DNA from: Alkalihalobacillus sp. LMS39 | Lineage (GTDB): Bacteria; Bacillota; Bacilli; Bacillales; Bacillaceae_F | Assembly (NCBI RefSeq): GCF_022812285.1 | Contig: NZ_CP093300.1 | Coordinates: 4,577,171-4,601,170, forward strand | Length of the DNA: 24,000 bases | Direction of reading: 5' to 3' | Part shown: positions 5,410 through 21,779 of the stretch, one piece after another | Position numbering within the stretch: the first letter of the stretch is position 1 | Layout of the letters: each line of letters begins with the position of its first letter | Position numbers and translations under genes: made by a program | The notes under the pieces: generated by a model | What the model was told of the DNA's origin: nothing | Database searches by the model: none | The model's input: only the letters and a program-made list of their open reading frames with translations

Positions 5410-5592
5410 AACGGACATGTGTTCCGCTATTTTATCTAAAATAGCGTTTTTACAATTTCTATCGGACATCTGTTCCGTTAATCTAGTATTTTCGCCCGCG
5501 CTAACTCCAGAAAAGAGGAGAATAGCGGAACACATGTCCGATAAAAATGAAAAACACCTATATTCCGCTATATAACGGAATAGATGTCCGAA
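5410..5592. repeat. Structured intergenic repeat, copy B
   Basis: Modules are aacggacatgtgttccgctat (5410), tatcggacatctgttccgtta (5460), aatagcggaacacatgtccgata (5521) and ataacggaatagatgtccgaa (5572). I estimate about 85% identity to copy C by eye over the whole length. It lies downstream of the bglH terminator. Confidence 0.9.
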
Positions 5593-5658: not shown

Positions 5659-7125
<1,467 letters not shown>

Positions 7126-7136
7126 TCATTTTATGA

Positions 7137-7159
7137 AAAGGGGGAGAGCCCCCCAAAAC
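7137..7159 (-). terminator. Short GC hairpin with flanking T-runs between bglP and bglH (possible partial terminator or processing site)
   Basis: The minus strand reads TTTT GGGGGG CTCT CCCCC TTTT. That is five G-C pairs plus a tetraloop. It lies within the 66-nt bglP-bglH spacer. Confidence 0.3.
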
Positions 7160-7167
7160 ACACGTAA

Positions 7168-9039
<1,872 letters not shown>

Positions 9040-10170: not shown

Positions 10171-10354
10171 AACGGACACTTGTTCCGCTATTTCAACTAA
10201 AATAGCGTTTTCACAATTTCTATCGGACATCTGTTCCGTTAATCTAGCATTTCACCCGCGCTAAGTCCTGAGATGAGGCGAATAGCGGAACACATGTCCG
10301 TTAAAAATGAGAGACAGCTATTTTCCGCTTAAATAACGGAACAGATGTCCGATA
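10171..10354. repeat. Structured intergenic repeat, copy C
   Basis: Modules are aacggacacttgttccgctat (10171), tatcggacatctgttccgttaa (10221), aatagcggaacacatgtccgtta (10281) and ataacggaacagatgtccgata (10333). It begins 15 nt downstream of the lipoprotein gene stop. Confidence 0.9.
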
Positions 10355-12642: not shown

Positions 12643-14619
12643 CTAATCATGCAAATACAACTTTCTTCTTTTTAAAATATATAGTAACGTTCCAGCTAGT
12701 GTCAGTACACTTCCTACTACTAAGTACGTATAAAAATTTGTCGCTGTTTTCGGAAGCTTCTTTCCTTCTTCCTTCTCTTCTTTTTTCTCATTTTCCTTGT
12801 TGTCATTTACTGGCGGGACAGTACCTTCGTCTTTATCTTTATCTTTATCATTGTCTTCTTCTTCATCCTCAACCGGAGGCATTGGAACGCTTGGCTCTTT
12901 TTCATCATCATCTGTCGGTGGTGTTGGTGTCACAGGTGCTGGTGGCGTTTGCCCGAAATTTAATCCTTCAAATAACACATCGAGTAATGTTCCATTTTTA
13001 TCACCGTGAAATTCCCAAAACATCGCTCCACCTAATTGTAAATCTTGAATATGAACGACTTTATGAGCCATTGACTCCGCATCATCATAAGAGATGAAGG
13101 TACCTGTTTCTTCGTTAAATAAGAACGGAACTTTTGCAACATCATTCCAATAACGGATATAGCCATTTTGATTAATATAGTTGCTTTCAAGGTCTTGGAA
13201 ATCGTACACACCAGGCTCCCACGTTCCAGGTGGTGCTGGTCCTGTACAGTTTGCATATTGACCATAAATCGGTGTTCTTTCTATCTCTTGCTCTTCTTCA
13301 GCCGTTTCTTCCATGTCTTCTACAATTTCTTCTTCTGTTTCACGCAATTTTTCAGTTTCTTTGGATTCTGCTTCTACTTCTTCTGTTTCATCTGTTTCTA
13401 TTATTTCTTCGTTTTCTACTTCTGTCTCTACTTCTTCCACCGATTCTGTTTCTTCTTGTTGTTCTTCATCTACCGTTCCTTCATCTTCATTTATATTTTC
13501 TCGTTCGTCAGTATCGGTCCCATCGTTAGATTCCGTTGAAGTGACTTCTAGTTGTTCTACACTCTCTTGACTCGGATTTTCGACGATTTCCTCATAAGCG
13601 CACCCACCCCAAGCTCGGCCGTAAAAAGGAACACCCATGACGAGTTTTTCTGGGGGAACACCGTGGTTTATGTGCCCTTCCACTGCGGCCGCAACATTAA
13701 ATACTTCAGCACTAGGAACTCCCGCTTCTTTTGCAGCTTCGTCAAAATACAACGGAGCATTATGACCACTAATCGCTTGCCAGCCTCCATTAAAGTCATA
13801 TGTCATAATATTAATAAAGTCTAGGATTTCGGCGATTTTTTCCATTTCATTGTTTTCAAGATATGTTGGACTCGCACTAGAGGCAATCGTTAATAAATAG
13901 CGTTTCCCATCTTCTTCTCCTGCTTTATCAAGCGCATCTCGTACCGCTTGCAACAGAAGCGTATGGTTTTGCTTATCAAGAGGGGAGCGGCTATTTCCCG
14001 GCATTCCACCACTTACTGGATATTCCCAGTCAATGTCAACGCCATCCATTTGATAAGTACGGATAAAATCAACGGCCGATTGCGCAAATGTTTCGCGTGT
14101 TTCAGCTGTCATCGCTACATCAGAGAAACGATTCGACCACGACCATCCTCCAACTGAAATTAAAGTTTTCAAATGTGGATGCTTTTCTTTTAGTTTAACA
14201 AGCTCGTATAAATTCCCTGCAAACGGTTGACCTTCCTCATATCTTCCATATTGACTATCTGTATCAATCCACGGATCTCCTAATACGATCGTTCCATTTG
14301 GGACATCAATGACTTCTTCACCAGGACCTTGACAAGGGCTTGTCCCTGCCCATGTGTCTGGATTTCCCCTTTCTCCATTCCAGCAAATATCAGCAAACGC
14401 GTAATTAATATGGGTGACTTTGCTTGCATCAATGTCTGCCGGAAAATACTGCCTTTCGTATGCAGACCATGACGTATAATAGCCCACGATTTTTTTGTAA
14501 TCCCCCGCTTTTGCTTTCACTTGTTGCGTCGACATCAATGGGATAAATAATGAAAATACGAGTAACAAGCTTACTAGAATCATAACCCATTTCCGATCGA
14601 CAACCGCATGTCTCATCAT
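12643..14619 (-). CDS. GH18 chitinase, sortase-anchored (LPKTAT), with a ~105-aa acidic insertion inside the catalytic domain
   Basis: It has a signal peptide, the GH18 motifs SVGGWSWS and DGVDIDWEYP (DxxDxDxE catalytic motif), MTYDF, GVPFYGRAW and GAMFWEF. The C-terminus has a P/T and D/E/K-rich linker, then LPKTATN + TM + KRRK. GGAGGA SD 6 nt before ATG 14619. Confidence 0.9.
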   Translation of the reverse strand: MMRHAVVDRKWVMILVSLLLVFSLFIPLMSTQQVKAKAGDYKKIVGYYTSWSAYERQYFPADIDASKVTHINYAFADICWNGERGNPDTWAGTSPCQGPGEEVIDVPNGTIVLGDPWIDTDSQYGRYEEGQPFAGNLYELVKLKEKHPHLKTLISVGGWSWSNRFSDVAMTAETRETFAQSAVDFIRTYQMDGVDIDWEYPVSGGMPGNSRSPLDKQNHTLLLQAVRDALDKAGEEDGKRYLLTIASSASPTYLENNEMEKIAEILDFINIMTYDFNGGWQAISGHNAPLYFDEAAKEAGVPSAEVFNVAAAVEGHINHGVPPEKLVMGVPFYGRAWGGCAYEEIVENPSQESVEQLEVTSTESNDGTDTDERENINEDEGTVDEEQQEETESVEEVETEVENEEIIETDETEEVEAESKETEKLRETEEEIVEDMEETAEEEQEIERTPIYGQYANCTGPAPPGTWEPGVYDFQDLESNYINQNGYIRYWNDVAKVPFLFNEETGTFISYDDAESMAHKVVHIQDLQLGGAMFWEFHGDKNGTLLDVLFEGLNFGQTPPAPVTPTPPTDDDEKEPSVPMPPVEDEEEDNDKDKDKDEGTVPPVNDNKENEKKEEKEEGKKLPKTATNFYTYLVVGSVLTLAGTLLYILKRRKLYLHD

Positions 14620-14749
14620 CTTCGTTCCTCCTCTTTATACATGTGTTATTTCGAGTACAGAAGTACCCAAACTGGAAAACATCCTTATTGGAAAGAGCGT
14701 CTTAGATGTTCGTTCAGAAAAAACAATTATAAATATTCGGAATATTTAA

Positions 14750-14765
14750 CTAGATGACTATACCA
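14750..14765 (-). promoter_or_regulatory. Operator-like 16-mer, proximal copy (minus strand TGGTATAGTCATCTAG)
   Basis: It is the inverted partner of 14840..14855 and differs at one position. It lies 131 nt upstream of the chitinase ATG and immediately downstream of a TATAAA hexamer on the minus strand. Confidence 0.45.
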
Positions 14766-14839
14766 GTTTATAATAGATTTATAGTTGAAACAACCTCCCC
14801 TAAAGTACTATTTTGCATGCGCTTTTACTACTTCTTTAT

Positions 14840-14855
14840 TGGTATAGTCATATAG
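14840..14855 (+). promoter_or_regulatory. Operator-like 16-mer, distal copy (plus strand TGGTATAGTCATATAG)
   Basis: It is the inverted partner of 14750..14765 with a 74-bp spacer between them. It contains a tandem TATAGTCA TATAGTCA. Confidence 0.45.
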
Positions 14856-14896
14856 TCATTTAAGAGGAAGGCACTTGACTGCTAAAGGACAAGTCG

Positions 14897-15080
14897 TATC
14901 GGACATTCATTCCGCTATTTCAGACAAAACAGGCATTTTCAGGTTCTTATCGGACATCTGTTCCGCTATTTGCCCAAATGAGCAGTCAAACTACCTTGTT
15001 TGGTTAAGATAACGGAATAGATGTCCAATACATCTCAGAAACTGCTATTTTCATTAAAATAGCGGAACAGATGTCCGTTA
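14897..15080. repeat. Structured intergenic repeat, copy D
   Basis: Modules are tatcggacattcattccgctat (14897), tatcggacatctgttccgctat (14948), ataacggaatagatgtccaata (15009) and atagcggaacagatgtccgtta (15059), giving spacing 51/61/50. It lies downstream of the exonuclease gene terminator. Confidence 0.9.
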
Positions 15081-15116
15081 ACTAATACCGTAGTTCGATT
15101 TCCCCCGTTTTAACAG

Positions 15117-15146
15117 AAAAAAACACCCCTCATCATTATAGGAGTG
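15117..15146 (-). terminator. Candidate rho-independent terminator overlapping the exonuclease stop codon
   Basis: The minus-strand stem is CACUCCU (15146..15140) / AGGGGUG (15130..15124), with one G-U pair. It has a 9-nt loop and is followed by TTTTTTT (15123..15117). Confidence 0.55.
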
Positions 15147-15792
15147 CTTTACTCGGATTATCTGTAATATGAAGTAAATCAGCGAGCGTTGTTTTTCCGC
15201 GTTCTTCAAGCAATCGAAGCATTTCAACAAACAAATATGCCGTTGTCAAAGCATCGCCGATCGCACTATGGCGTTCAAACATATTTGTGCCAAACGTGCG
15301 GGCATAGTGGGATAAATCTCGCATATCCCATGACGGATTTAAATAGCCGATTAAATCGAGTGTATCGATAAACTGCGGCTGTTCAAATGTATGCTTTTCT
15401 CTTTTGAGTTCTTTTTTTAAAACAAGAACATCAAAGCTAACATAATGTCCGACCCATCCCGCGCTTTCGGAAGCTTCGATAAATTGAAAAAACTGTTCAA
15501 TTGCTTCTAATGCCTTTGGTGCTTCTTTCACTTTTTCTTCTGTAATTCCTGTTAAACTTTTAATCTCTTTTGGAATCTCTCGTTCTGGATTAACATAAGA
15601 ATGAAACGTCATATCTGTTACTTGTAACCCTTCGACATGGACAGCCCCAATCTCCAATAAGCGGTCTTTTGCTCCGACAGCAAAGCCGGTTGTTTCTGTA
15701 TCAAAAATTGTAAATGACATATCTTTTAACTTTTTATTTAATGGAGGTTGGTGGTCAAGTGTGTAATGGAGTTTTTTCTTTTTCCAAAACAT
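15136..15792 (-). CDS. DEDDh 3'-5' exonuclease (DNA polymerase III epsilon-like)
   Basis: 218 aa. Exo I motif FTIFDTETTG. Exo III-type motif HSAIGDALTTA (H-x4-D). AAAGGAGGAG SD. Confidence 0.85.
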   Translation of the reverse strand: MFWKKKKLHYTLDHQPPLNKKLKDMSFTIFDTETTGFAVGAKDRLLEIGAVHVEGLQVTDMTFHSYVNPEREIPKEIKSLTGITEEKVKEAPKALEAIEQFFQFIEASESAGWVGHYVSFDVLVLKKELKREKHTFEQPQFIDTLDLIGYLNPSWDMRDLSHYARTFGTNMFERHSAIGDALTTAYLFVEMLRLLEERGKTTLADLLHITDNPSKALL

Positions 15793-15866
15793 AAATGCTC
15801 CTCCTTTGCTTGAGGTTGTGTCACCCCTTTTTTATATGACCCGTTCGTTTAGACACAACATCTCAA

Positions 15867-17798
15867 TTATGTCATTCCAAATTCTCGTAACGCTTGCTGT
15901 TGAAGAGACCGAATCGTTTTTAATGCTGCCATCAGTTGCTCTTTGTCACGTGAGCGCAGATGGGTAAAATGAATATCACTTGTTTGTGTTTCATTTCGTT
16001 TTTGTTTTGTCCATCCTTGATCGACACGGATTTTTAGGATCGTTTCATACGCGTATAAAAGCTCTTCAACAAAAGAGGGAGTAAAGACACCTCTTTGTTG
16101 CAATGCGTCGATTTTTTGCTCTGGAAAGCCACCAACAATATGATGCTGAGCAGCAAGCATTTGCAAAGAATGATGAAATGGAAATAGAGCTTCTTTTTTT
16201 ACATCTAACGTCGTTCGTTTCACCCGAAATAACGCTCGAATCGGATGATCGAGTGTTGGAACGGGATGTTCTCGTTCTTGTTTGGCCATTCGGTAAAAAA
16301 AGATGCGGGAATGACTTAGTTCGGTATTTACGATTTGTTCAAACTCATCATAAAGATGACGGTCACCATGAACAAAACGGAAGGATAAAAAGTTTTGCGC
16401 AAGGAGGATATTTTCATTTGTTGCTCGAATGCCCCACCTTCTAATTTTTTCTTTCCAATCTGTTACAGTTCCTCGCCACGCTTTTTCACTTGCCATCATT
16501 TTTCCTAGACATTGAGAATATCCTGCTTGTTCGAGGTGACGGACGATTTCCTGACTTACGTTTTCAAAATACACTTCGGCTCCTTCGCCTTCCCCATAGA
16601 CAAGAAAATGGTCTTGGTCTGTCAGCAAAAATTGTTCTCCTCTTCCCCCGCTCCCCATTTGCATAAAGCAAAACGAGGCAGGCGGCATGCCACCTCCTTT
16701 TTCATATACAGACTGGACGGCGAGTTCCACACAATGGGAAACAAGGCGATCATATAATTTTGTAATGATTTCTAATGAGTGCGTTGTCGGGATTCGGTCT
16801 TGAATTAAATGCCCGAGCACTTCATAAATCGCGAGCTTGACTTCTGGTAATGTATCAAACGATGCGTCTTCGATCGTTTGTAAAATTTCCATCGTACCAC
16901 GATTCTTTTTCCGTAATAAATCGGCCATCGTCACCATACCGACGACATGATCATTTTCTATGACCGGCAAATGTTTAATTCCATTCATTAAAAAACTCGA
17001 CATCGCCTCGTAATAATACGCATCATAAGAAATCGTATACGGGTTTTCCGTCATCACGTTTTCAACAACCATTGTGTTTGGATGACCTTCACCAACAATA
17101 CGAGTCACAACATCTTTTTCCGTCATAATGCCAACAAGTTTGTTTTGTTCGTTTAATATAACGACTGAACTTGTTTGGTTTTTTGCCATTTTTTCTACGA
17201 CTTCTTTAACGGTTGCTGTCGTATACACAGATACAACAGGTTCATTCATCACATCTGCCATTCGTCTGACAAACGGTTCACTTTCGCCCCACTGACTTGC
17301 AAGCTTCACTTGTTCTGCTAACGAACCATAAACATCCTGCAAGCGAACAGCTAGCTGCCGGAGAATAAAGTCTCGTACTGATTCATCGTGCCAACGTTCT
17401 TCGATGACAGAATACGGAATTTGCAAGCAATGACAGTTCGACACTGCCATTACTTCAACGGTATAAGAAGGAGAGCTATGTTTTGTTTCTCCTAAAAAAT
17501 CAGCTAAACTGGAAAATCCAATTATGTCCCCCGCTTCAAGCACTTCAAGCACTTCTTTATCATGAAAGCTATCGTCATTTTGAATATAAACTTCAGCCAT
17601 TCCAGATAACAGCAGTAAAAGCCCTTCGCGTGGTGTTTTCGAATAAAGGACTTTTTCTGATTTTCCATATTCCTTTAACATACATTGTTCAAGCAGTTGC
17701 TCAAACTCACGAATGGGCACCCCCAAAAAGAGGGGGTGCTTATGAATTTGTTCGAGTTGGTTATTTTCCGACCGACTCATCCATCCATACCTCACCAT
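15867..17798 (-). CDS. Signal-transduction protein: cyclic-nucleotide-binding domain + CBS pair + DUF294 nucleotidyltransferase + DUF294 C-terminal domain
   Basis: The N-terminal ~140 aa are cNMP-binding-like. Tandem CBS motifs span about residues 180-300. The nucleotidyltransferase signature is MGSGGRGEQFLLTDQDH (GS-x9-D-x-D). A helical domain forms the C-terminus. The start is either ATG 17798 or, more likely, ATG 17780 (GGTGAGG 9 nt upstream). Either start overlaps the 3' end of the symporter gene, by 38 or 20 nt. Confidence 0.8.
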   Translation of the reverse strand: MVRYGWMSRSENNQLEQIHKHPLFLGVPIREFEQLLEQCMLKEYGKSEKVLYSKTPREGLLLLLSGMAEVYIQNDDSFHDKEVLEVLEAGDIIGFSSLADFLGETKHSSPSYTVEVMAVSNCHCLQIPYSVIEERWHDESVRDFILRQLAVRLQDVYGSLAEQVKLASQWGESEPFVRRMADVMNEPVVSVYTTATVKEVVEKMAKNQTSSVVILNEQNKLVGIMTEKDVVTRIVGEGHPNTMVVENVMTENPYTISYDAYYYEAMSSFLMNGIKHLPVIENDHVVGMVTMADLLRKKNRGTMEILQTIEDASFDTLPEVKLAIYEVLGHLIQDRIPTTHSLEIITKLYDRLVSHCVELAVQSVYEKGGGMPPASFCFMQMGSGGRGEQFLLTDQDHFLVYGEGEGAEVYFENVSQEIVRHLEQAGYSQCLGKMMASEKAWRGTVTDWKEKIRRWGIRATNENILLAQNFLSFRFVHGDRHLYDEFEQIVNTELSHSRIFFYRMAKQEREHPVPTLDHPIRALFRVKRTTLDVKKEALFPFHHSLQMLAAQHHIVGGFPEQKIDALQQRGVFTPSFVEELLYAYETILKIRVDQGWTKQKRNETQTSDIHFTHLRSRDKEQLMAALKTIRSLQQQALREFGMT

Positions 17799-19425
17799 CG
17801 CGATATGTCATTTGTTCTGGGTAGCGAAGGTCTGTGACTTCATCTTGAATTTTTTGTGATGGAGCTGCTGTCATTTTCGAAACAACATATGTGACAAGTA
17901 AGTTTACGGGAACCCCAATTAACCCCGCTCCTGTATCTTGAATGCCAGCAATCATAAATGTTCCGCTTTGAGCAAGGAAAATATACGTTAGCGTCACAGT
18001 TAAACCGGATAACATTCCGGCAATGGCACCTGGTGCATTACATCGTTTCCACCAAACCCCTAGCAATAAAACAGGGAAGAAAGTTCCACCTGCAAGAGCA
18101 AAGGCCCAAGCGACAATTTGTGTAATTACACCTGGTGGATCAAGTGCAACAATACCGGCGACAACTGTTGCTAAGACGATTGCAATTCGTCCTGCTGCTA
18201 GACGACGTTTGTCTGTCGCTTTCGGATTCATTAACCGATAATAAATATCATGGGCAAACGACGAGGATATCGTAATTAAAAGTCCTCCGGCTGTTGATAA
18301 GGCTGCCGCCATCGCACCTGCTGCCACTAACCCAATAACAAACATTCCTAAGTTTGCAATTTCCGGTGTTGCCATCACGACGATATCATTACTAATCATA
18401 ATTTCAGACCATTCTAATATCCCGTCTCCATTTGTATCTGCAATTTGCAGTCGGCCTGTATCGACCCAGCTTTGTGTCCAAGCTGGTAGTGAATCGATTG
18501 GTTGCCCTGCGACTTGTGTCATTAAAATAAAGCGAGAAAACGCCGCATACGCAGGAGCCGATAAGTATAATAACGCGATAAAAAGAAGTGCCCATGCTCC
18601 ACTCCAACGTGCCGCCTTCATCGTTGCTACCGTATAAAAGCGAACAATGACGTGTGGAAGTGCAGCTGTCCCTACCATGAGGGTAAATAGGAGCGCAATA
18701 AATTGTGATTTTTCACTATTCGCAAACGGGGCGAAATACTCACTTAACCCAAGTTCACGGTCAAGATCGCCTAATTGACTAACAATATTTCCATATGTTA
18801 ACCACGGTAATGGGTTATTCGTAATTTGTAGCGACATAAACACAATCGGAATAATATAAGCAATAATTAAAATGATATATTGTGCGACTTGTGTCCACGT
18901 AATCCCTTTCATTCCCCCAAGGGTCGCATATATTGCAATAACGACGACTCCAATCATCGTTCCATACATGGCATCGATGTTTAAGATACGTCCGATAACA
19001 ACACCAGAACCAGAAAGCTGGCCGATGATATAAACAAAACTAATAATTATGGTCGCAATCGCCGCAATCAGCCTGGCCGGATTGGAATCAAATCGGTCTC
19101 CTATAAATTCGGGTACCGTATACCGACCATATTTTCTTAATTGTGGTGCCAATAAGAAAGTTAAGAATAAGTACCCACCAGTCCAACCCATTATATAAGC
19201 TAAACCGTCATATCCTAAAATCATGACTGTTCCTGCCATCCCGATAAAGGATGCAGCACTCATCCAGTCACCACCGATGGCCATCCCATTCCATACTGGA
19301 GGTACGCCCCGGCTTGCTACATAAAAGTCAGATGTTGCTTTTGCACGATTATAAACGGAAATTCCAATGTACAATCCAAATGTCGCCATGATCATTAATA
19401 CTGATACAATTGATTGTGAATCCAA
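17761..19425 (-). CDS. Sodium:solute symporter family (SSS) large subunit, of the type paired with DUF4212
   Basis: 554-aa polytopic protein with about 13-14 TM helices. It has SSS-type motifs (GGDWMSAASFIG, GGMKG.TWTQVAQ). The TTG start at 19425 has GAGGAGGAA upstream. It lies directly downstream of a DUF4212 gene. Confidence 0.85.
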   Translation of the reverse strand: MDSQSIVSVLMIMATFGLYIGISVYNRAKATSDFYVASRGVPPVWNGMAIGGDWMSAASFIGMAGTVMILGYDGLAYIMGWTGGYLFLTFLLAPQLRKYGRYTVPEFIGDRFDSNPARLIAAIATIIISFVYIIGQLSGSGVVIGRILNIDAMYGTMIGVVVIAIYATLGGMKGITWTQVAQYIILIIAYIIPIVFMSLQITNNPLPWLTYGNIVSQLGDLDRELGLSEYFAPFANSEKSQFIALLFTLMVGTAALPHVIVRFYTVATMKAARWSGAWALLFIALLYLSAPAYAAFSRFILMTQVAGQPIDSLPAWTQSWVDTGRLQIADTNGDGILEWSEIMISNDIVVMATPEIANLGMFVIGLVAAGAMAAALSTAGGLLITISSSFAHDIYYRLMNPKATDKRRLAAGRIAIVLATVVAGIVALDPPGVITQIVAWAFALAGGTFFPVLLLGVWWKRCNAPGAIAGMLSGLTVTLTYIFLAQSGTFMIAGIQDTGAGLIGVPVNLLVTYVVSKMTAAPSQKIQDEVTDLRYPEQMTYRDGEVWMDESVGK

Positions 19426-19487
19426 ATTGGTTCCTCCTCGTCCTACTACTCTCTACTAAGAATAGGCTACTTTTTTTGCTAACATCA

Positions 19488-19790
19488 TTAATGGTCTACT
19501 GTTTTTCCAGCGCTTAAGCGGACATTTTCTTCTTCGTTTATACCGAATTTTCTGTCTATTCTGTCGCTAACAATGGCATTGACAAACAACATAACGACAA
19601 AGGTAACAACTGCGCCTTGGGCCGCCATATAGTAGTGGAATGGCATCCCCATAAATTGAATGTTTTGCAATGATTCTGCAAAAAAGACAACACCAAATGA
19701 TGCTAATCCGCCAATAAGTAAGCAAATAACAATAATTGTATTTCTCGCTTTAAAATAAGCATCTGCTACTGATTTATCAATTTTTTTCAT
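19488..19790 (-). CDS. DUF4212 protein (putative solute:sodium symporter small subunit)
   Basis: 100 aa with two TM helices. The sequence pattern is FFAESLQNIQFMGMPFHYYMAAQGAVVTFVVMLFVNA...DRKFG, as I remember for the DUF4212/TIGR03647 family. AAAGGAGGTG SD. Confidence 0.8.
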   Translation of the reverse strand: MKKIDKSVADAYFKARNTIIVICLLIGGLASFGVVFFAESLQNIQFMGMPFHYYMAAQGAVVTFVVMLFVNAIVSDRIDRKFGINEEENVRLSAGKTVDH

Positions 19791-19816
19791 GCTTTCACCT
19801 CCTTTACAAGTTTAAC

Positions 19817-19830
19817 TGTAATCGCTTACA
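19817..19830. promoter_or_regulatory. cre box (CcpA catabolite-responsive element), full consensus match
   Basis: The plus strand reads TGTAATCGCTTACA and the minus strand TGTAAGCGATTACA. Both fit TGWAANCGNTNWCA at every defined position. It lies 27 nt upstream of the DUF4212 ATG. Confidence 0.7.
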
Positions 19831-19842
19831 AACAACTTGATA

Positions 19843-20082
19843 TTATGAGACTTTCTTGCATGTACGACATACTTTCATTGGTGTTTTTCGTTTTGCTACT
19901 AGGAAGTTAAAGAATAGAATGGGCAGGATCATGATGAAAAATATCGGTTCAAAAATAAAACTAATGAGGACAGCAACGATGACAGGTAATGTAGATAACG
20001 TAAAAAAATATTGCCAGTGGTTCATTTGTAACAAATCTGCACTACCACATTGGCAGTGAGTTGTATTCAGTTGTTTCTTCAT
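19843..20082 (-). CDS. Small two-TM protein with cysteine pairs at both termini (HCQC ... CRTC)
   Basis: 79 aa from ATG 20082 (MKKQLNTTHCQCGS...MKVCRTCKKVS), with GAGGTG just upstream. The ORF-track GTG at 20088 adds two residues. Confidence 0.5.
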   Translation of the reverse strand: MKKQLNTTHCQCGSADLLQMNHWQYFFTLSTLPVIVAVLISFIFEPIFFIMILPILFFNFLVAKRKTPMKVCRTCKKVS

Positions 20083-20084
20083 GT

Positions 20085-20261
20085 TCACCTCAAACTAAAT
20101 ATAAATTTAACCGTTTCAAAAAATGGCATTGGCACTAATATAATTTGAACGATCATATACACAAAAATTGCAACAAATGGGAGTGTGAGAAGTAAAGGTT
20201 TTTTTCGTTTAATGGCAAAAATAATACTTGCTATCGTAATGAGTAGAAATACATAGATCAT
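20085..20261 (-). CDS. Possible 58-aa two-TM peptide (below the ORF-track cutoff)
   Basis: My own translation is MIYVFLLITIASIIFAIKRKKPLLLTLPFVAIFVYMIVQIILVPMPFFETVKFIFSLR*. GGGAGG lies 9 nt upstream of ATG 20261. Its TGA stop (20087..20085) is separated by 2 nt from the start of the next small gene. Confidence 0.45.
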   Translation of the reverse strand: MIYVFLLITIASIIFAIKRKKPLLLTLPFVAIFVYMIVQIILVPMPFFETVKFIFSLR

Positions 20262-20284
20262 CTAGAACAGCCTCCCTAGTAAAA

Positions 20285-20298
20285 TGTAACCGCTATCA
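20285..20298. promoter_or_regulatory. cre box (CcpA catabolite-responsive element), full consensus match
   Basis: The plus strand reads TGTAACCGCTATCA, which fits TGWAANCGNTNWCA at every defined position. It lies in the leader between the candidate promoter (20367..20395) and the first small ORF. Confidence 0.65.
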
Positions 20299-20366
20299 AT
20301 AGTGCTGATAGTTTTTCGTTCATCTGTTTCTATACAGGCATGTTTTATGTATATTTGATATAGTAC

Positions 20367-20395
20367 ATATTATTCCAAATTTTCTAACAATGCAA
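20367..20395 (-). promoter_or_regulatory. Candidate sigma-A promoter for the small-ORF / DUF4212 / symporter operon
   Basis: On the minus strand: TTGCAT (20395..20390), a 17-nt spacer TGTTAGAAAATTTGGAA, then TAATAT (20372..20367). Confidence 0.6.
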
Positions 20396-20474
20396 CCATT
20401 ATTTTTCTACATAAAGCTACAAATTGACGTAAGAAAGCATGGAAACTTTGTTGTTGCGGAAATGAGAGAGTTGC

Positions 20475-20659
20475 GTTCGGACATATGTTCCGCTATTCTC
20501 GTCTAATCTCACTTTTTTCATAATCTATCGGACATCTATTCCGTTACTTACATTAACCACTTCTAGTTTCAGCATGATTTGATGAAATAGCGGAATACAT
20601 GTCCATTACGATTCGTAAAAGGGGCATTTTCCATACTATAACGGAACAAATGTCCGATA
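20475..20659. repeat. Structured intergenic repeat, copy E
   Basis: Modules are gttcggacatatgttccgctat (20475), tatcggacatctattccgttac (20526), atagcggaatacatgtccatta (20587) and ataacggaacaaatgtccgata (20638), giving spacing 51/61/51. It lies downstream of the ABC-2 permease gene. Confidence 0.9.
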
Positions 20660-20702
20660 GCATTGCGCACTAGAGCGCGCAATGCCAATGACAGACAACC
20701 CG

Positions 20703-21779
20703 CTACTTCATCCGTTTATCGACAAATTGAATTCCAAATGTAATAATGACGGCACCAATAAACGTTAAGAGTGCCAGTGACGGAACAATATCTTCAAGAG
20801 ACTGTTCATACATCGTCACCGCCTTTATGCTTTCTAGCGCATGTGTTAACGGTACGGCATTTGATATTGTTAATAATAAATCCGATGTGACAATTTCAAG
20901 TGGCCAGTAAGCTCCTCCTAACATTGCCATACTTACAGAAAGCAATGAGACGAATAAATCAAACTGTGTATCTGTTTGTACGAAGGCGACCAATAACAAC
21001 AGCCAGCCAACACTGACGATGATATATAACATCATCGTTATCCCAATTGCCAACCATGTTTTAGAAAAGTCAAGTCCAAATATCGTTTGAGCAACGACTA
21101 ACACGATCGCTATGTGGATAAGGCCAATGATTACTGAGAATGTTAAAAAGCCTCCGTAGATTTTCGATTTGGATAATGGTGAAAAAACATATCGGTCCCA
21201 AATTCGTTCCCGCTTCATCCGTAAAAACTCTTTTACCGTATATCCTAACGTATACATGATAAAAAACAAGCAAGAGCCAAATAACGCCTGATAACGAAAG
21301 TCAATATTAGACTCTATATTATGTGGAGTTGTCGTTAATTGAATTTGGTCAAATTCCAACTCGCTTAGTGGCTTTCCAATAATATCGTTCGCTAACTCAT
21401 TAAATTGCTGTTCTACTTTAAGCTGGTATGCGGCATTCGTCACAACCGGAATGAGTGCTTGAAGTTCCGCTTCTTCTGACAATGTAATTATCGTAACGTC
21501 ATCTGACACAACAATGTATTCTCCGATTCTGCCTTTTTTTAATGCCGCTTGTGCCTCATCCTCTTTCTCAATATAAAAGGTGAAAGAGGATTGGTCACGT
21601 AATTGCTCGATTAGACGTTGGACTTTATGTTCCTCTCCTACTACCGCTACTTCTCTTGTTGATGATTGGGTTTGTAGCCCGATAACAAACGAAAACATAA
21701 GGGTTAAGCCAATCATTAATAAATATGGGGCACTATTTCGTTTGAGTTTAATAAAGGATAACCATAGTATCGATTTCAA
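20703..21779 (-). CDS. ABC-2 type transporter permease (second permease)
   Basis: 358 aa with one N-terminal TM, a large extracytoplasmic loop of about 150 aa, and a C-terminal bundle of 5-6 TM helices. This is the typical ABC-2 membrane-protein topology. The TTG start at 21779 overlaps the upstream stop by 4 nt, and AAGGAGGGA lies upstream. Confidence 0.8.
   Translation of the reverse strand: MKSILWLSFIKLKRNSAPYLLMIGLTLMFSFVIGLQTQSSTREVAVVGEEHKVQRLIEQLRDQSSFTFYIEKEDEAQAALKKGRIGEYIVVSDDVTIITLSEEAELQALIPVVTNAAYQLKVEQQFNELANDIIGKPLSELEFDQIQLTTTPHNIESNIDFRYQALFGSCLFFIMYTLGYTVKEFLRMKRERIWDRYVFSPLSKSKIYGGFLTFSVIIGLIHIAIVLVVAQTIFGLDFSKTWLAIGITMMLYIIVSVGWLLLLVAFVQTDTQFDLFVSLLSVSMAMLGGAYWPLEIVTSDLLLTISNAVPLTHALESIKAVTMYEQSLEDIVPSLALLTFIGAVIITFGIQFVDKRMK

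Follow-up and report, generated by a model that had tools for sequence, protein, structure and literature searches.

A six-gene uptake operon of Alkalihalobacillus sp. LMS39 with a conserved nucleotidyltransferase and DEDDh exonuclease pair as candidate writer and eraser of a protein mark

The 24-kb window of Alkalihalobacillus sp. LMS39, meaning the whole stretch of DNA that was analysed, contains a transporter locus which ends in the genes of a sensor nucleotidyltransferase (NTase) and a DEDDh exonuclease (Exo). With a probability of about 0.35 this locus may be read as a catabolite-repressed six-gene uptake operon in which NTase is the writer and Exo the eraser of a nucleotidyl mark. The operon would provide for uptake, coupled to Na+, of a small monocarboxylate, for example acetate, lactate or pyruvate. 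Its transporter would consist of the VC_2705-type symporter with the DUF4212 subunit and of two small membrane proteins, and translational coupling would connect it with the conserved regulatory module that the last two genes form. NTase would attach a nucleotidyl (NMP) mark to a protein via a phosphodiester bond, most likely to the complex of the symporter or to some other protein of carbon uptake or activation, the activity of which would be lowered. Exo would cleave this bond hydrolytically, with 5'-NMP as product, and so provide the removal activity that NTase lacks. Acting together, the two enzymes would restrain, in response to energy charge, an assimilation of organic acids that generates AMP.

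According to the ORF calls, positions 15136-19790 are filled exactly by four minus-strand ORFs. The tight one-strand packing described in the first-pass annotation was thus seen again, with the DUF4212 gene 62 nt upstream of the symporter gene, then an overlap of 20 nt and a spacing of 74 nt, and all four of its domain assignments were borne out by Pfam and NCBIfam matches. The unit really comprises six genes rather than four, because two small membrane ORFs lie upstream of the DUF4212 gene (Table 1). For sORF1 no family was found in Pfam, NCBIfam or PADLOC; sORF2 had no family match, and its homologues with the same cysteine and transmembrane pattern occur in the alkaliphile clade only. Two copies of a palindromic repeat, which is outside the function of the unit, flank the locus, and an Rfam scan of 14400-20900 (E<=1) yielded no known RNA element. 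The cre site and the promoter at this locus are consensus matches, and binding of CcpA to the former is predicted. A cre site with at most one mismatch is present at -25 to -67 in 39 of 69 orthologous loci, as compared to 1 of 69 in a control segment. A consensus promoter scan upstream of sORF1 gave no convincing sigma-A promoter; a putative TTGCAT-17-TAATAT was spotted by eye.

Table 1. Features of the LMS39 locus, listed by position in the window.
Feature	Position	Strand	Description
Palindromic intergenic repeat, downstream copy	14900..15077	.	about 180 bp; bounds the unit
Intrinsic terminator	15113..15150	-	11-bp stem and U7; overlaps the last Exo codons; RNA fold of 14885-15150
DEDDh 3'-5' exonuclease (Exo), 218 aa	15136..15792	-	PF00929 RNase_T, E=2e-32
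Sensor nucleotidyltransferase (NTase), 637 aa	15867..17780	-	PF00027, 2x PF00571, PF03445, PF10335
VC_2705-family sodium:solute symporter, large subunit, 554 aa	17761..19425	-	TTG start; PF00474 SSF; TIGR03648
DUF4212 small symporter subunit, 100 aa	19488..19790	-	PF13937, E=1e-25; TIGR03647, 86 bits (cutoff 26.05)
sORF2, 79 aa	19843..20082	-	CxC...two TM helices...CxxC; start 2 nt past the sORF1 stop
sORF1, small membrane protein, 58 aa	20085..20261	-	first gene of the unit; GGGAGG ribosome-binding site
cre (predicted CcpA site), TGATAGCGGTTACA	20285..20298	-	37 nt upstream of the first ORF; exact match to TGWNANCGNTNWCA
Palindromic intergenic repeat, upstream copy	20478..20656	.	matches the downstream copy

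The counts for Bacillales were taken from a scan of genome contigs, the best 80 loci of which all belonged to this order. Among the matches listed, the gene order sORF1-DUF4212-symporter-NTase-Exo is kept in 68 of 79 Bacillales species, and the NTases of these species are 34-64% identical to that of LMS39. As the order recurs at so low an identity, the arrangement is not due to chance. In the same set of matches sORF1 homologues precede DUF4212 in 68 of 68 loci of the full-order type, and NTase is followed by Exo in 77 of 78 informative loci. Bacillus massiliigorillae has the pair with no symporter nearby. The overlap of NTase start and symporter stop amounts to 38 nt when counted from the first ATG (at 17798, yielding 643 aa) and to 20 nt when counted from Met7, the two values given in the first-pass annotation. 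Met7 is the start of an identical NCBI protein (637 aa, Alkalihalobacillus sp. LMS39), and the alignments of homologues agree with it. An overlap of 14, 17 or 20 nt was found in 51 of the 68 loci, which makes the translational coupling suggested earlier probable.

For the comparison across phyla, plasmid and chromid records and contigs encoding the proteins were used. A conservation of the four-family set across phyla, as had been expected, was indeed found, in Bacillota and in Alphaproteobacteria (Marivivens, Agrobacterium, Aliiroseovarius, Ruegeria, Thioclava). The proposed survey of gene neighbourhoods, however, yielded a constant unit of NTase and Exo only, with a transporter that is interchangeable or absent: the pair is accompanied by the DUF4212/VC_2705 type, by ActP/DUF485, by a sugar symporter, by symporter-fused kinases (which flank it in Paracoccus and Cupriavidus) or by none of these, as in Hymenobacteraceae and some Vibrio besides the Bacillus species mentioned. 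It is kept in 18 of 19 Proteobacteria and in 5 of 5 Hymenobacteraceae (Bacteroidota). The invariant core is therefore the NTase and Exo pair, found in three bacterial phyla or more. Matches were obtained in at least 598 species genomes, and 490 clusters at 50% identity reached E<=1e-30; in a profile search seeded with four proteobacterial NTases the best 120 matches were all from Rhodobacterales. Operons of the type acs-adk-DUF4212-SSF-NTase-...-Exo in Rhodobacterales tie the module to AMP-forming acetate activation, and the alphaproteobacterial Exo carries a PAS sensor of its own and adjoins a response regulator gene.

A cluster of this kind has been described before. Shewanella amazonensis Sama_1522-1525 and P. 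stutzeri Psest_0346-0349 are symporter clusters with a downstream COG2905 NTase and RNase_T gene, in which DUF4212 mutants are cofit with the large symporter subunit, both subunits are required for use of D,L-lactate or D-alanine, and cofitness with the symporter was seen for the RNase_T-domain gene as well (Price et al., bioRxiv 10.1101/072470). These clusters comprise the same four families on one strand as in LMS39, the gene order being taken from locus-tag numbers there and confirmed directly in Alphaproteobacteria. The novelty is smaller than implied in the first-pass annotation, since the linkage has been published by Price et al. and in papers on the CrbS/R-MxtR/ErdR regulon, with some genetics, including the finding that Exo mutants phenocopy transporter mutants. 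Because an orthologue of the cluster is already described in Proteobacteria, the locus is not a discovery on its own. Compared to the proteobacterial clusters, that of Bacillales has one or two extra ORFs for small membrane proteins at its upstream end, an NTase start that overlaps the symporter stop, and a cre site in place of CrbS/R control; its NTase is only 21-26% identical to the proteobacterial homologues. In Alphaproteobacteria the cluster is extended by acs and adk, both frequent companions of the four families there, and by a protein of 170 aa, a response regulator and a long PAS-Exo.

In Vibrio cholerae the literature assigns VC2704/VC2705 to the symporter system and VC2702 to crbR. 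PA3232-PA3235, which had been named in the first-pass annotation as the same four-gene set, contain a transporter of DUF485 and ActP type, PA3234 being 80% identical to E. coli ActP (PMC9765439). The Pseudomonas version, a member of the MxtR/ErdR (= CrbS/R) regulon, hence has ActP with DUF485 (YjcH) instead of VC_2705 with DUF4212, and its orthologous NTase and Exo (PA3232-PA3235; PP_0353/PP_0354) are located in an operon, are co-regulated by the acetate two-component system and have growth phenotypes which tie them to the use of acetate, propionate and pyruvate. The P. putida pair is separated from actP and located near glcB. The pair in Pseudomonas is controlled by a symporter-fused histidine kinase system, whereas among the ORFs of at least 90 aa in the LMS39 window none looks, by eye, like a histidine kinase or response regulator; in place of CrbS/R (MxtR/ErdR) control the locus has its cre site. 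The acetate-utilization genes that had been named as neighbours of PA3232-PA3235 are missing near the locus, and acs is absent from the 24-kb window.

The symporter scores 748.1 bits against TIGR03648 (cutoff 320.75) and remains below the cutoffs for ActP, MctC and PutP. An identity as ActP/YjcH was rejected, with 167 versus 1099 for TIGR02711 and 212 versus 750 for PRK09395, and with DUF4212 rather than DUF485 as its partner. By analogy to the fitness data of its homologues it may transport monocarboxylates or D-alanine coupled to Na+. A conserved C-terminal RYPEQM motif was considered as a modification site and dropped, as nothing separates it from a structural feature of the family, and also because the NTase start and its ribosome-binding site overlap and constrain the last symporter codons.

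NTase consists of a cNMP-like barrel (residues ~20-150), a CBS pair (~175-295), the DUF294 NTase domain (~320-455) and a helical DUF294_C domain (~495-637). Its pol-beta motif, G376-S377-x2-R380-x-E382 ... D388-Q-D390, proved to be invariant in 60 sequences from two phyla. A likeness to GlnD and GlnE, already supposed in the first-pass annotation, is supported by these intact motifs, by the Foldseek search with the AF2 model (pLDDT 86.5), which returned the adenylyl-transferase domain of GlnE (3k7d) as top PDB match with E=7e-9 over 390 columns at an identity of only 13% and a TM of 0.38-0.47, and by the match of PF03445 to residues 43-125 of E. coli GlnD (26 bits, cutoff 21). Alignment by hhalign superimposed the catalytic motifs, but with a probability of 3.8% (E=0.011). 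GlnD (PII uridylyltransferase/UR) and GlnE (GS adenylyltransferase/AR) have a pol-beta core followed by a KNTase_C-type helical domain, as has NTase with its C-terminal KNTase_C/GlnD-type domain (PF10335), and all three enzymes carry a fused domain for ligand sensing. NTase differs from them by the lack of a removal domain, which is HD in GlnD and a second NTase domain in GlnE, neither being detected by Pfam in its 637 aa, by having a CBS pair with a cNMP-like barrel as sensors in place of ACT domains, and by having a separate DEDDh exonuclease as constant partner. Among the 150 best NTase representatives, with family lengths of ~485 or ~630 aa, no longer fused architecture and no NTase-Exo fusion occurred; the long matches were CBS-repeat proteins. 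No solved DUF294 NTase was found by sequence search of the PDB, which matched CBS and CRP-like proteins only.

Sensing of a cyclic nucleotide, as suggested earlier, is doubtful. The Pfam match of the barrel to cNMP_binding is marginal (31.3 bits, cutoff 27.5), the Glu and Arg of the phosphate-binding cassette of CRP/Vfr are replaced (in comparison to Vfr, G-E by G-F and R-S by Y-T), and the cassette segment has no invariant Glu or Arg across phyla, so that the barrel is cNMP-like and probably does not bind cNMP. Both CBS motifs (Ghh[ST]xxD) are intact as GIMTEKD and GMVTMAD, with G217, T220, D223 and G281 invariant and T284 conserved to at least 90%; judged from these residues, the CBS pair probably reads the adenylate energy state (AMP/ATP).

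In Exo, the residues D31, E33, D121, H175, and D180 are conserved to at least 93% in 90 homologues including those of Pseudomonas, Vibrio, and Hymenobacter. Among proteins of solved structure it is closest to the PolC exonuclease domain, DinG, and DnaQ, and it is by similarity to these only that Exo is predicted to act at nucleic-acid 3' ends. That its closest relatives are DNA/RNA 3'-end exonucleases speaks against a role as eraser, and we know of no DEDDh enzyme which removes NMP from a protein. Genetic data come from P. putida, where on pyruvate the mutant in PP_0353 (Exo) is impaired like the actP-I and yjcH mutants and the mutant in PP_0354 (NTase) is not, an asymmetry that is predicted by Exo counteracting NTase. 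On propionate both mutants of the pair are impaired, which is not a simply antagonistic behaviour. As the pair is also found without a symporter nearby, the symporter cannot be its universal target.

A credible though doubtful alternative is that NTase gates Exo, switching it on or off by nucleotidylylation or simple binding, and that the symporter and other carbon-uptake genes require the action of Exo on RNA 3' ends for their expression. MNT NTases, which AMPylate their HEPN RNase partners, offer an analogy. In both systems an NTase is encoded beside a nuclease, and DUF294_C and HEPN share a Pfam clan; here, however, the nuclease is of the DEDDh type instead of HEPN, the catalytic motif of HEPN is missing from DUF294_C (PMC3710099, Table 1), the context is metabolic and inheritance is apparently vertical. 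A gated Exo would leave the family-typical roles in place, GlnD/GlnE-clade enzymes modifying proteins and DEDDh enzymes acting on nucleic acids. It would also explain why the pair persists without a symporter and why the alphaproteobacterial Exo has a PAS sensor beside a response regulator. To our knowledge E. coli has no NTase and Exo pair; it apparently runs its ActP, the close homologue of PA3234, without one, which counts against such gating, as does the absence of an invariant Tyr from Exo (at best Y163 with 87% and Y117 with 82% of the 90 homologues). Degradation of mRNA has been speculated upon by Henriquez et al., but the Rfam search disclosed no conserved RNA element in the operon, and how a 3'-5' exonuclease could raise expression is not evident.

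It is distinctly unlikely that NTase tails and Exo trims RNA or DNA 3' ends, with tRNA, sRNA or the operon mRNA as target, for which the CCA-adding enzyme with RNase T and the MenT-type NTases are models. An NTase together with a 3'-5' exonuclease follows the classic logic of end turnover, the relatives of Exo act on nucleic-acid ends and the two genes are near-obligate neighbours; NTase is by fold and profile, however, nearest to GlnE and GlnD rather than to CCA-adding enzymes or poly(A) polymerases, its C-terminal domain is of the KNTase_C/GlnD type, and the Rfam scan gave no candidate RNA. Very unlikely is a second-messenger circuit, in which NTase makes a linear or cyclic oligonucleotide and Exo degrades it like Orn or NrnC. 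Orn is a DEDDh enzyme that degrades dinucleotides, NTase bears sensor domains, and PAS and response-regulator genes adjoin Exo in Alphaproteobacteria; against this, NTase is not CD-NTase/cGAS-like by fold, has no PADLOC/CBASS match and is not accompanied by a conserved receptor or effector gene. That the pair is an unrelated neighbour, either a housekeeping exonuclease for proofreading, like epsilon, or a pair with a toxin-antitoxin or defence role, is extremely improbable and largely refuted by synteny statistics and published regulon data: Exo matches generic DEDDh models of the CRISPR-associated and PolC/DnaQ kind (in PADLOC only such generic ones), but the two genes remain neighbours in three phyla with identities of 20-60%, the overlap of NTase start and symporter stop is conserved, the Pseudomonas pair belongs to the acetate two-component regulon with growth phenotypes, and the defence or toxin-antitoxin version was rejected because NTase and the transporter proteins have no PADLOC match.

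Returning to NTase as writer and Exo as eraser, the wider proposal that the pair is an unrecognized reversible protein-nucleotidylylation switch, with the DEDDh fold recruited as a de-NMPylase, which in three or more phyla would link adenylate energy charge to the activity of SLC5/SSS transporters, SSS-fused sensor kinases and further proteins of carbon uptake, must be regarded as rather unlikely. In line with the first-pass annotation, the literature up to a September 2026 preprint yielded no biochemical data for any DUF294 protein. The problem concerns a widespread pair with genetic links to the use of acetate, propionate, pyruvate, and lactate in pathogens and industrial strains, and the survey narrows it, as the conserved unit is the pair and not the four-gene set and recurs beside SSS-family proteins with different substrates. 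For tests of the mechanism, the Bacillales provide a compact and translationally coupled version without the CrbS/R layer.

The first-pass annotation had described four tightly packed genes and an overlap between the end of the symporter gene and the start of the nucleotidyltransferase (NTase) gene, and this account is accurate. Exactly four minus-strand reading frames lie in 15136-19790, and the overlap is 20 nt when counted from Met7 and 38 nt when counted from an upstream ATG. Met7, which is the start assigned by NCBI, has a GGTGAGG ribosome-binding site just 5' of it, and a database protein of Alkalihalobacillus sp. LMS39 is 100% identical to the NTase. When scored against the equivalogs of ActP, MctC and PutP the symporter stayed below the cutoff for each. 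The transcription unit is bigger than had been reported, as two small membrane reading frames (sORF1 and sORF2), separated by 2 nt, are found directly 5' of the gene for the DUF4212 small subunit. Neither has a match in Pfam, NCBIfam or PADLOC; sORF1 may be a further transporter subunit.

Features of the operon, its surroundings and related loci (positions of L-numbered loci, fetched from other species, refer to those loci)
Feature	Position	Strand	Remarks
sORF1	20261..20085	minus	58 aa, small membrane ORF, good ribosome-binding site
sORF2	20082..19843	minus	79 aa, CxC...TM-TM...CxxC pattern, good ribosome-binding site
small subunit	within 15136-19790	minus	100 aa, DUF4212/TIGR03647
symporter	within 15136-19790	minus	554 aa; TIGR03648 'VC_2705 family sodium/solute symporter', 748 bits vs cutoff 320.75
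NTase	within 15136-19790	minus	637/643 aa; cNMP_binding, two CBS, DUF294, DUF294_C
exonuclease	within 15136-19790	minus	218 aa, RNase_T/DEDDh
cre (CcpA) consensus	20285-20298		operon leader, 37 nt 5' of sORF1; exact match TGATAGCGGTTACA
predicted intrinsic terminator			overlaps exonuclease gene end; 11-bp stem + U7
palindromic element copies	1335-1513, 5412-5590, 10173-10351, 14900-15077, 20478-20656		
Alkalihalobacterium	L005-L007 9932-12414		genes between NTase and exonuclease
Mesobacillus campisalis	L051 9833-12132		gene between NTase and exonuclease
Salipaludibacillus keqinensis	L020 10724-17211		second NTase-exonuclease pair
Rhodobacterales operons	L102 2124-10794, L103 1974-10844, L104 2000-11871		174-aa protein before long exonuclease
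Paracoccus denitrificans, Cupriavidus necator	L093 6332-13232; L086 1192-7966		SSF-fused kinase clusters
Hymenobacter, Pontibacter	L085 5239-7849; L098-L101 about 6277-8914		reversed pair

Cre-like sites with 0-1 mismatch were found at the equivalent position in 39 of 69 orthologous loci, as compared to 1 of 69 in a control segment. The keeping of this position suggests that the Bacillales transporter may be under carbon catabolite repression, replacing the CrbS/R control of proteobacteria. The window contains no acs gene, two-component genes were not apparent by eye among its reading frames of at least 90 aa, and an Rfam scan of the operon region gave no known RNA. The neighbours of the operon resemble a chitinase-like surface protein and an ABC transporter. 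A palindromic intergenic element of about 180 bp, present in five copies in the 24 kb, occupies sites that separate transcription units, and two of its copies lie on either side of the operon. Each copy carries the 19-mer CGGACATNTNTTCCGYTAT four times, two per strand (0 expected by chance), and the element folds to a long hairpin (z = -8.9); the exact 19-mer pattern is absent from all 104 loci fetched from other species.

When one genome of each species was scanned, at least 598 genomes had a relative. The best 80 of these loci, from Bacillales plus Heliorestis (identity 34-64%), were classified by phmmer, the NTase being scorable in 79. The order sORF1, DUF4212, VC_2705 symporter, NTase was found in 68 of the 79, and sORF1 is kept in all 68 Bacillales loci with this symporter type, while homologues of sORF2 are restricted to the alkaliphile clade. 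An ActP-type symporter replaces the VC_2705 type in six of the 79 (Sporosarcina and two MAGs, with a weak DUF485 match in two). No symporter was detected in five, three of which lack upstream sequence; the other two, Bacillus massiliigorillae and Bacillus sp. JJ722, have full flanks, with an M23 peptidase and an MFS gene 5' of the NTase. Of the 68 loci, 50 have a gene overlap of 14, 17 or 20 nt and one has an overlap of 23 nt, and the keeping of this length argues for selected translational coupling of NTase and symporter.

The DEDDh exonuclease is a near-obligate neighbour of the NTase, located 3' of it in 77 of 78 informative Bacillales loci and at most 300 nt away in 67. Surface-protein and sortase genes lie between the two in Alkalihalobacterium, and a PhoX gene in Mesobacillus campisalis, so the pair withstands insertions of about 2.5 kb without loss. 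Salipaludibacillus keqinensis has a second, divergent pair, 3' of genes for an MrfA-like helicase and an RNase_H_2/TPR (MrfB-like) exonuclease. Two loci labelled 'Chryseobacterium sp. ISL-80' and 'Pseudomonas sp. ISL-84' (L031 and L043) are of Bacillaceae type, with NTase identities of 47-48% and identical synteny including sORF1; these assemblies are probably mislabelled or contaminated.

By tblastn, DUF294 NTases turned up in 63 records of plasmids and chromids; 16 loci from outside Bacillota and six further ones from encoding contigs were read. The exact four-family set is present in Alphaproteobacteria, in the order acs-DUF4212-SSF-NTase-hyp-RR-Exo in Marivivens and acs-adenylate kinase-DUF4212-SSF-NTase-hyp174-(RR)-Exo in Aliiroseovarius, Ruegeria and Thioclava, and also in Agrobacterium. 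The predicted conservation across phyla is thereby supported. The P. aeruginosa genes PA3232-PA3235, which had been named as the same set, form an ActP/DUF485 variant; PA3234 shares 80% identity with ActP of E. coli (PMC9765439). In the Rhodobacterales operons the adenylate kinase gene adjoins that of the AMP-forming Acs, and their conserved protein of about 170 aa, without family, recurs in Marivivens, Agrobacterium and Skermanella. Skermanella has DUF4212, SSF and NTase genes, with no exonuclease found within 7 kb.

DUF485 and ActP are the transporter partner also in Methylocella, Microvirga and Aeromonas, and an ActP-type gene occurs in Cupriavidus. The partner is a sodium/sugar symporter in a gal operon in Salinivibrio, and in Vibrio and Photobacterium other SSF proteins lie 2-5 kb from the pair. 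In Paracoccus and Cupriavidus symporter-fused histidine kinases adjoin the NTase: in P. denitrificans and C. necator an SSF-fused CrbS-like kinase lies between the NTase and a long exonuclease that contains PAS, so that the pair can be linked to a symporter-like sensor instead of a transporter. Both clusters also encode a protein of 81 aa, and the Paracoccus cluster a response regulator. In five loci of Hymenobacteraceae (Bacteroidota) no SSF protein was found near the pair, which is reversed: the exonuclease precedes the NTase, and the two genes either overlap or are separated by 1 nt. In two of these loci (L085, L100) the pair is found among genes for polysaccharide utilisation (GH43, LacI). 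As the pair is kept in 18 of 19 proteobacterial and 5 of 5 Bacteroidota loci while the transporter partner changes, NTase and exonuclease are the invariant core.

The NTase is a GlnD/GlnE-like enzyme without an eraser domain, the likeness having been anticipated in the first-pass annotation. It yielded a confident AF2 model (pLDDT 86.5) with the adenylylation domain of E. coli GlnE (3k7d) as closest PDB fold (E=7e-9, 390 columns), and the DUF294 HMM matches the NTase domain of E. coli GlnD above the gathering threshold. In hhalign the catalytic motifs line up with each other, at low probability (3.8%, E=0.011). The residues G376-S-x2-R-x-E...D388-Q-D390 are invariant in 60 of 60 sequences from Bacillota and Alphaproteobacteria; an HD domain or a second NTase domain is absent. 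The two CBS motifs (GIMTEKD, GMVTMAD) have the canonical form, with T220 and D223 invariant. A cyclic-nucleotide sensor had been proposed as well; binding of such a ligand is doubtful, since the cNMP-like domain scores just above the Pfam cutoff (31.3 versus 27.5 bits) and the cassette residues G-E and R-S of Vfr are aligned to G-F and Y-T. Family members are about 630 or about 485 aa long, the shorter form aligning only from about residue 166 on, downstream of the cNMP-like region. No fusions to the exonuclease were seen among the 150 best representatives.

The catalytic DEDDh residues are conserved in at least 93% of 90 exonuclease homologues, and the nearest solved relatives are domains of PolC-exo, DinG and DnaQ. 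The alphaproteobacterial proteins are 471-706 aa long; a PAS domain is detectable in one, and several adjoin a response regulator. The sequence shows a transport operon that probably has a catabolite-repression site and is joined to a conserved pair of enzymes with intact catalytic motifs.

DUF4212 and the symporter are needed for use of D,L-lactate in Shewanella and of D-alanine in P. stutzeri (Price et al., bioRxiv 10.1101/072470). The nearby genes Sama_1525 and Psest_0349, given there as 'COG2905 (RNAse T domain protein)', are cofit, and were speculated to be required for symporter expression. This wording is ambiguous; by gene order they are most likely the exonuclease. In Pseudomonas CrbS/R (MxtR/ErdR) acts directly on the NTase/exonuclease operon (Pflu5625; PP_0354/PP_0353; PA3233/PA3232). 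Deletion of PP_0353 (exonuclease) causes a pyruvate defect like that of the actP-I and yjcH deletions, deletion of PP_0354 (NTase) causes none, and growth on propionate is reduced in both. A preprint of September 2026 still calls the function of these genes unclear.

In this published work, strains without the exonuclease behave like strains without the transporter, and those without the NTase are less affected, which fits an antagonistic pair. In the model we prefer, at a probability of about 0.35, the NTase would mark a carbon-uptake protein with an NMP group that inhibits it, and the DEDDh enzyme would take this mark off again; in formal terms, hydrolysis of a Tyr/Ser/Thr-O-P-5'-nucleoside bond with release of 5'-NMP does not differ from the removal of a 3'-terminal nucleotide. 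The presence of genes for AMP-forming acetyl-CoA synthetase and adenylate kinase in the Rhodobacterales operons fits a CBS pair that reads AMP/ATP. Against this model count that no DEDDh de-NMPylase is known and that the pair also occurs without any symporter. Its main rival, that the NTase gates an RNA-directed exonuclease which is itself needed for expression, we regard as somewhat less likely.

The published genetics and the 2026 preprint document both the linkage of symporter and pair and its unsolved biochemistry. The observation of the first-pass annotation thus holds, and its interpretation finds partial support. The linkage is already known, and the present locus adds a Bacillota case of the same kind: unsurprising, yet a clean entry point to the unsolved biochemistry of the pair.
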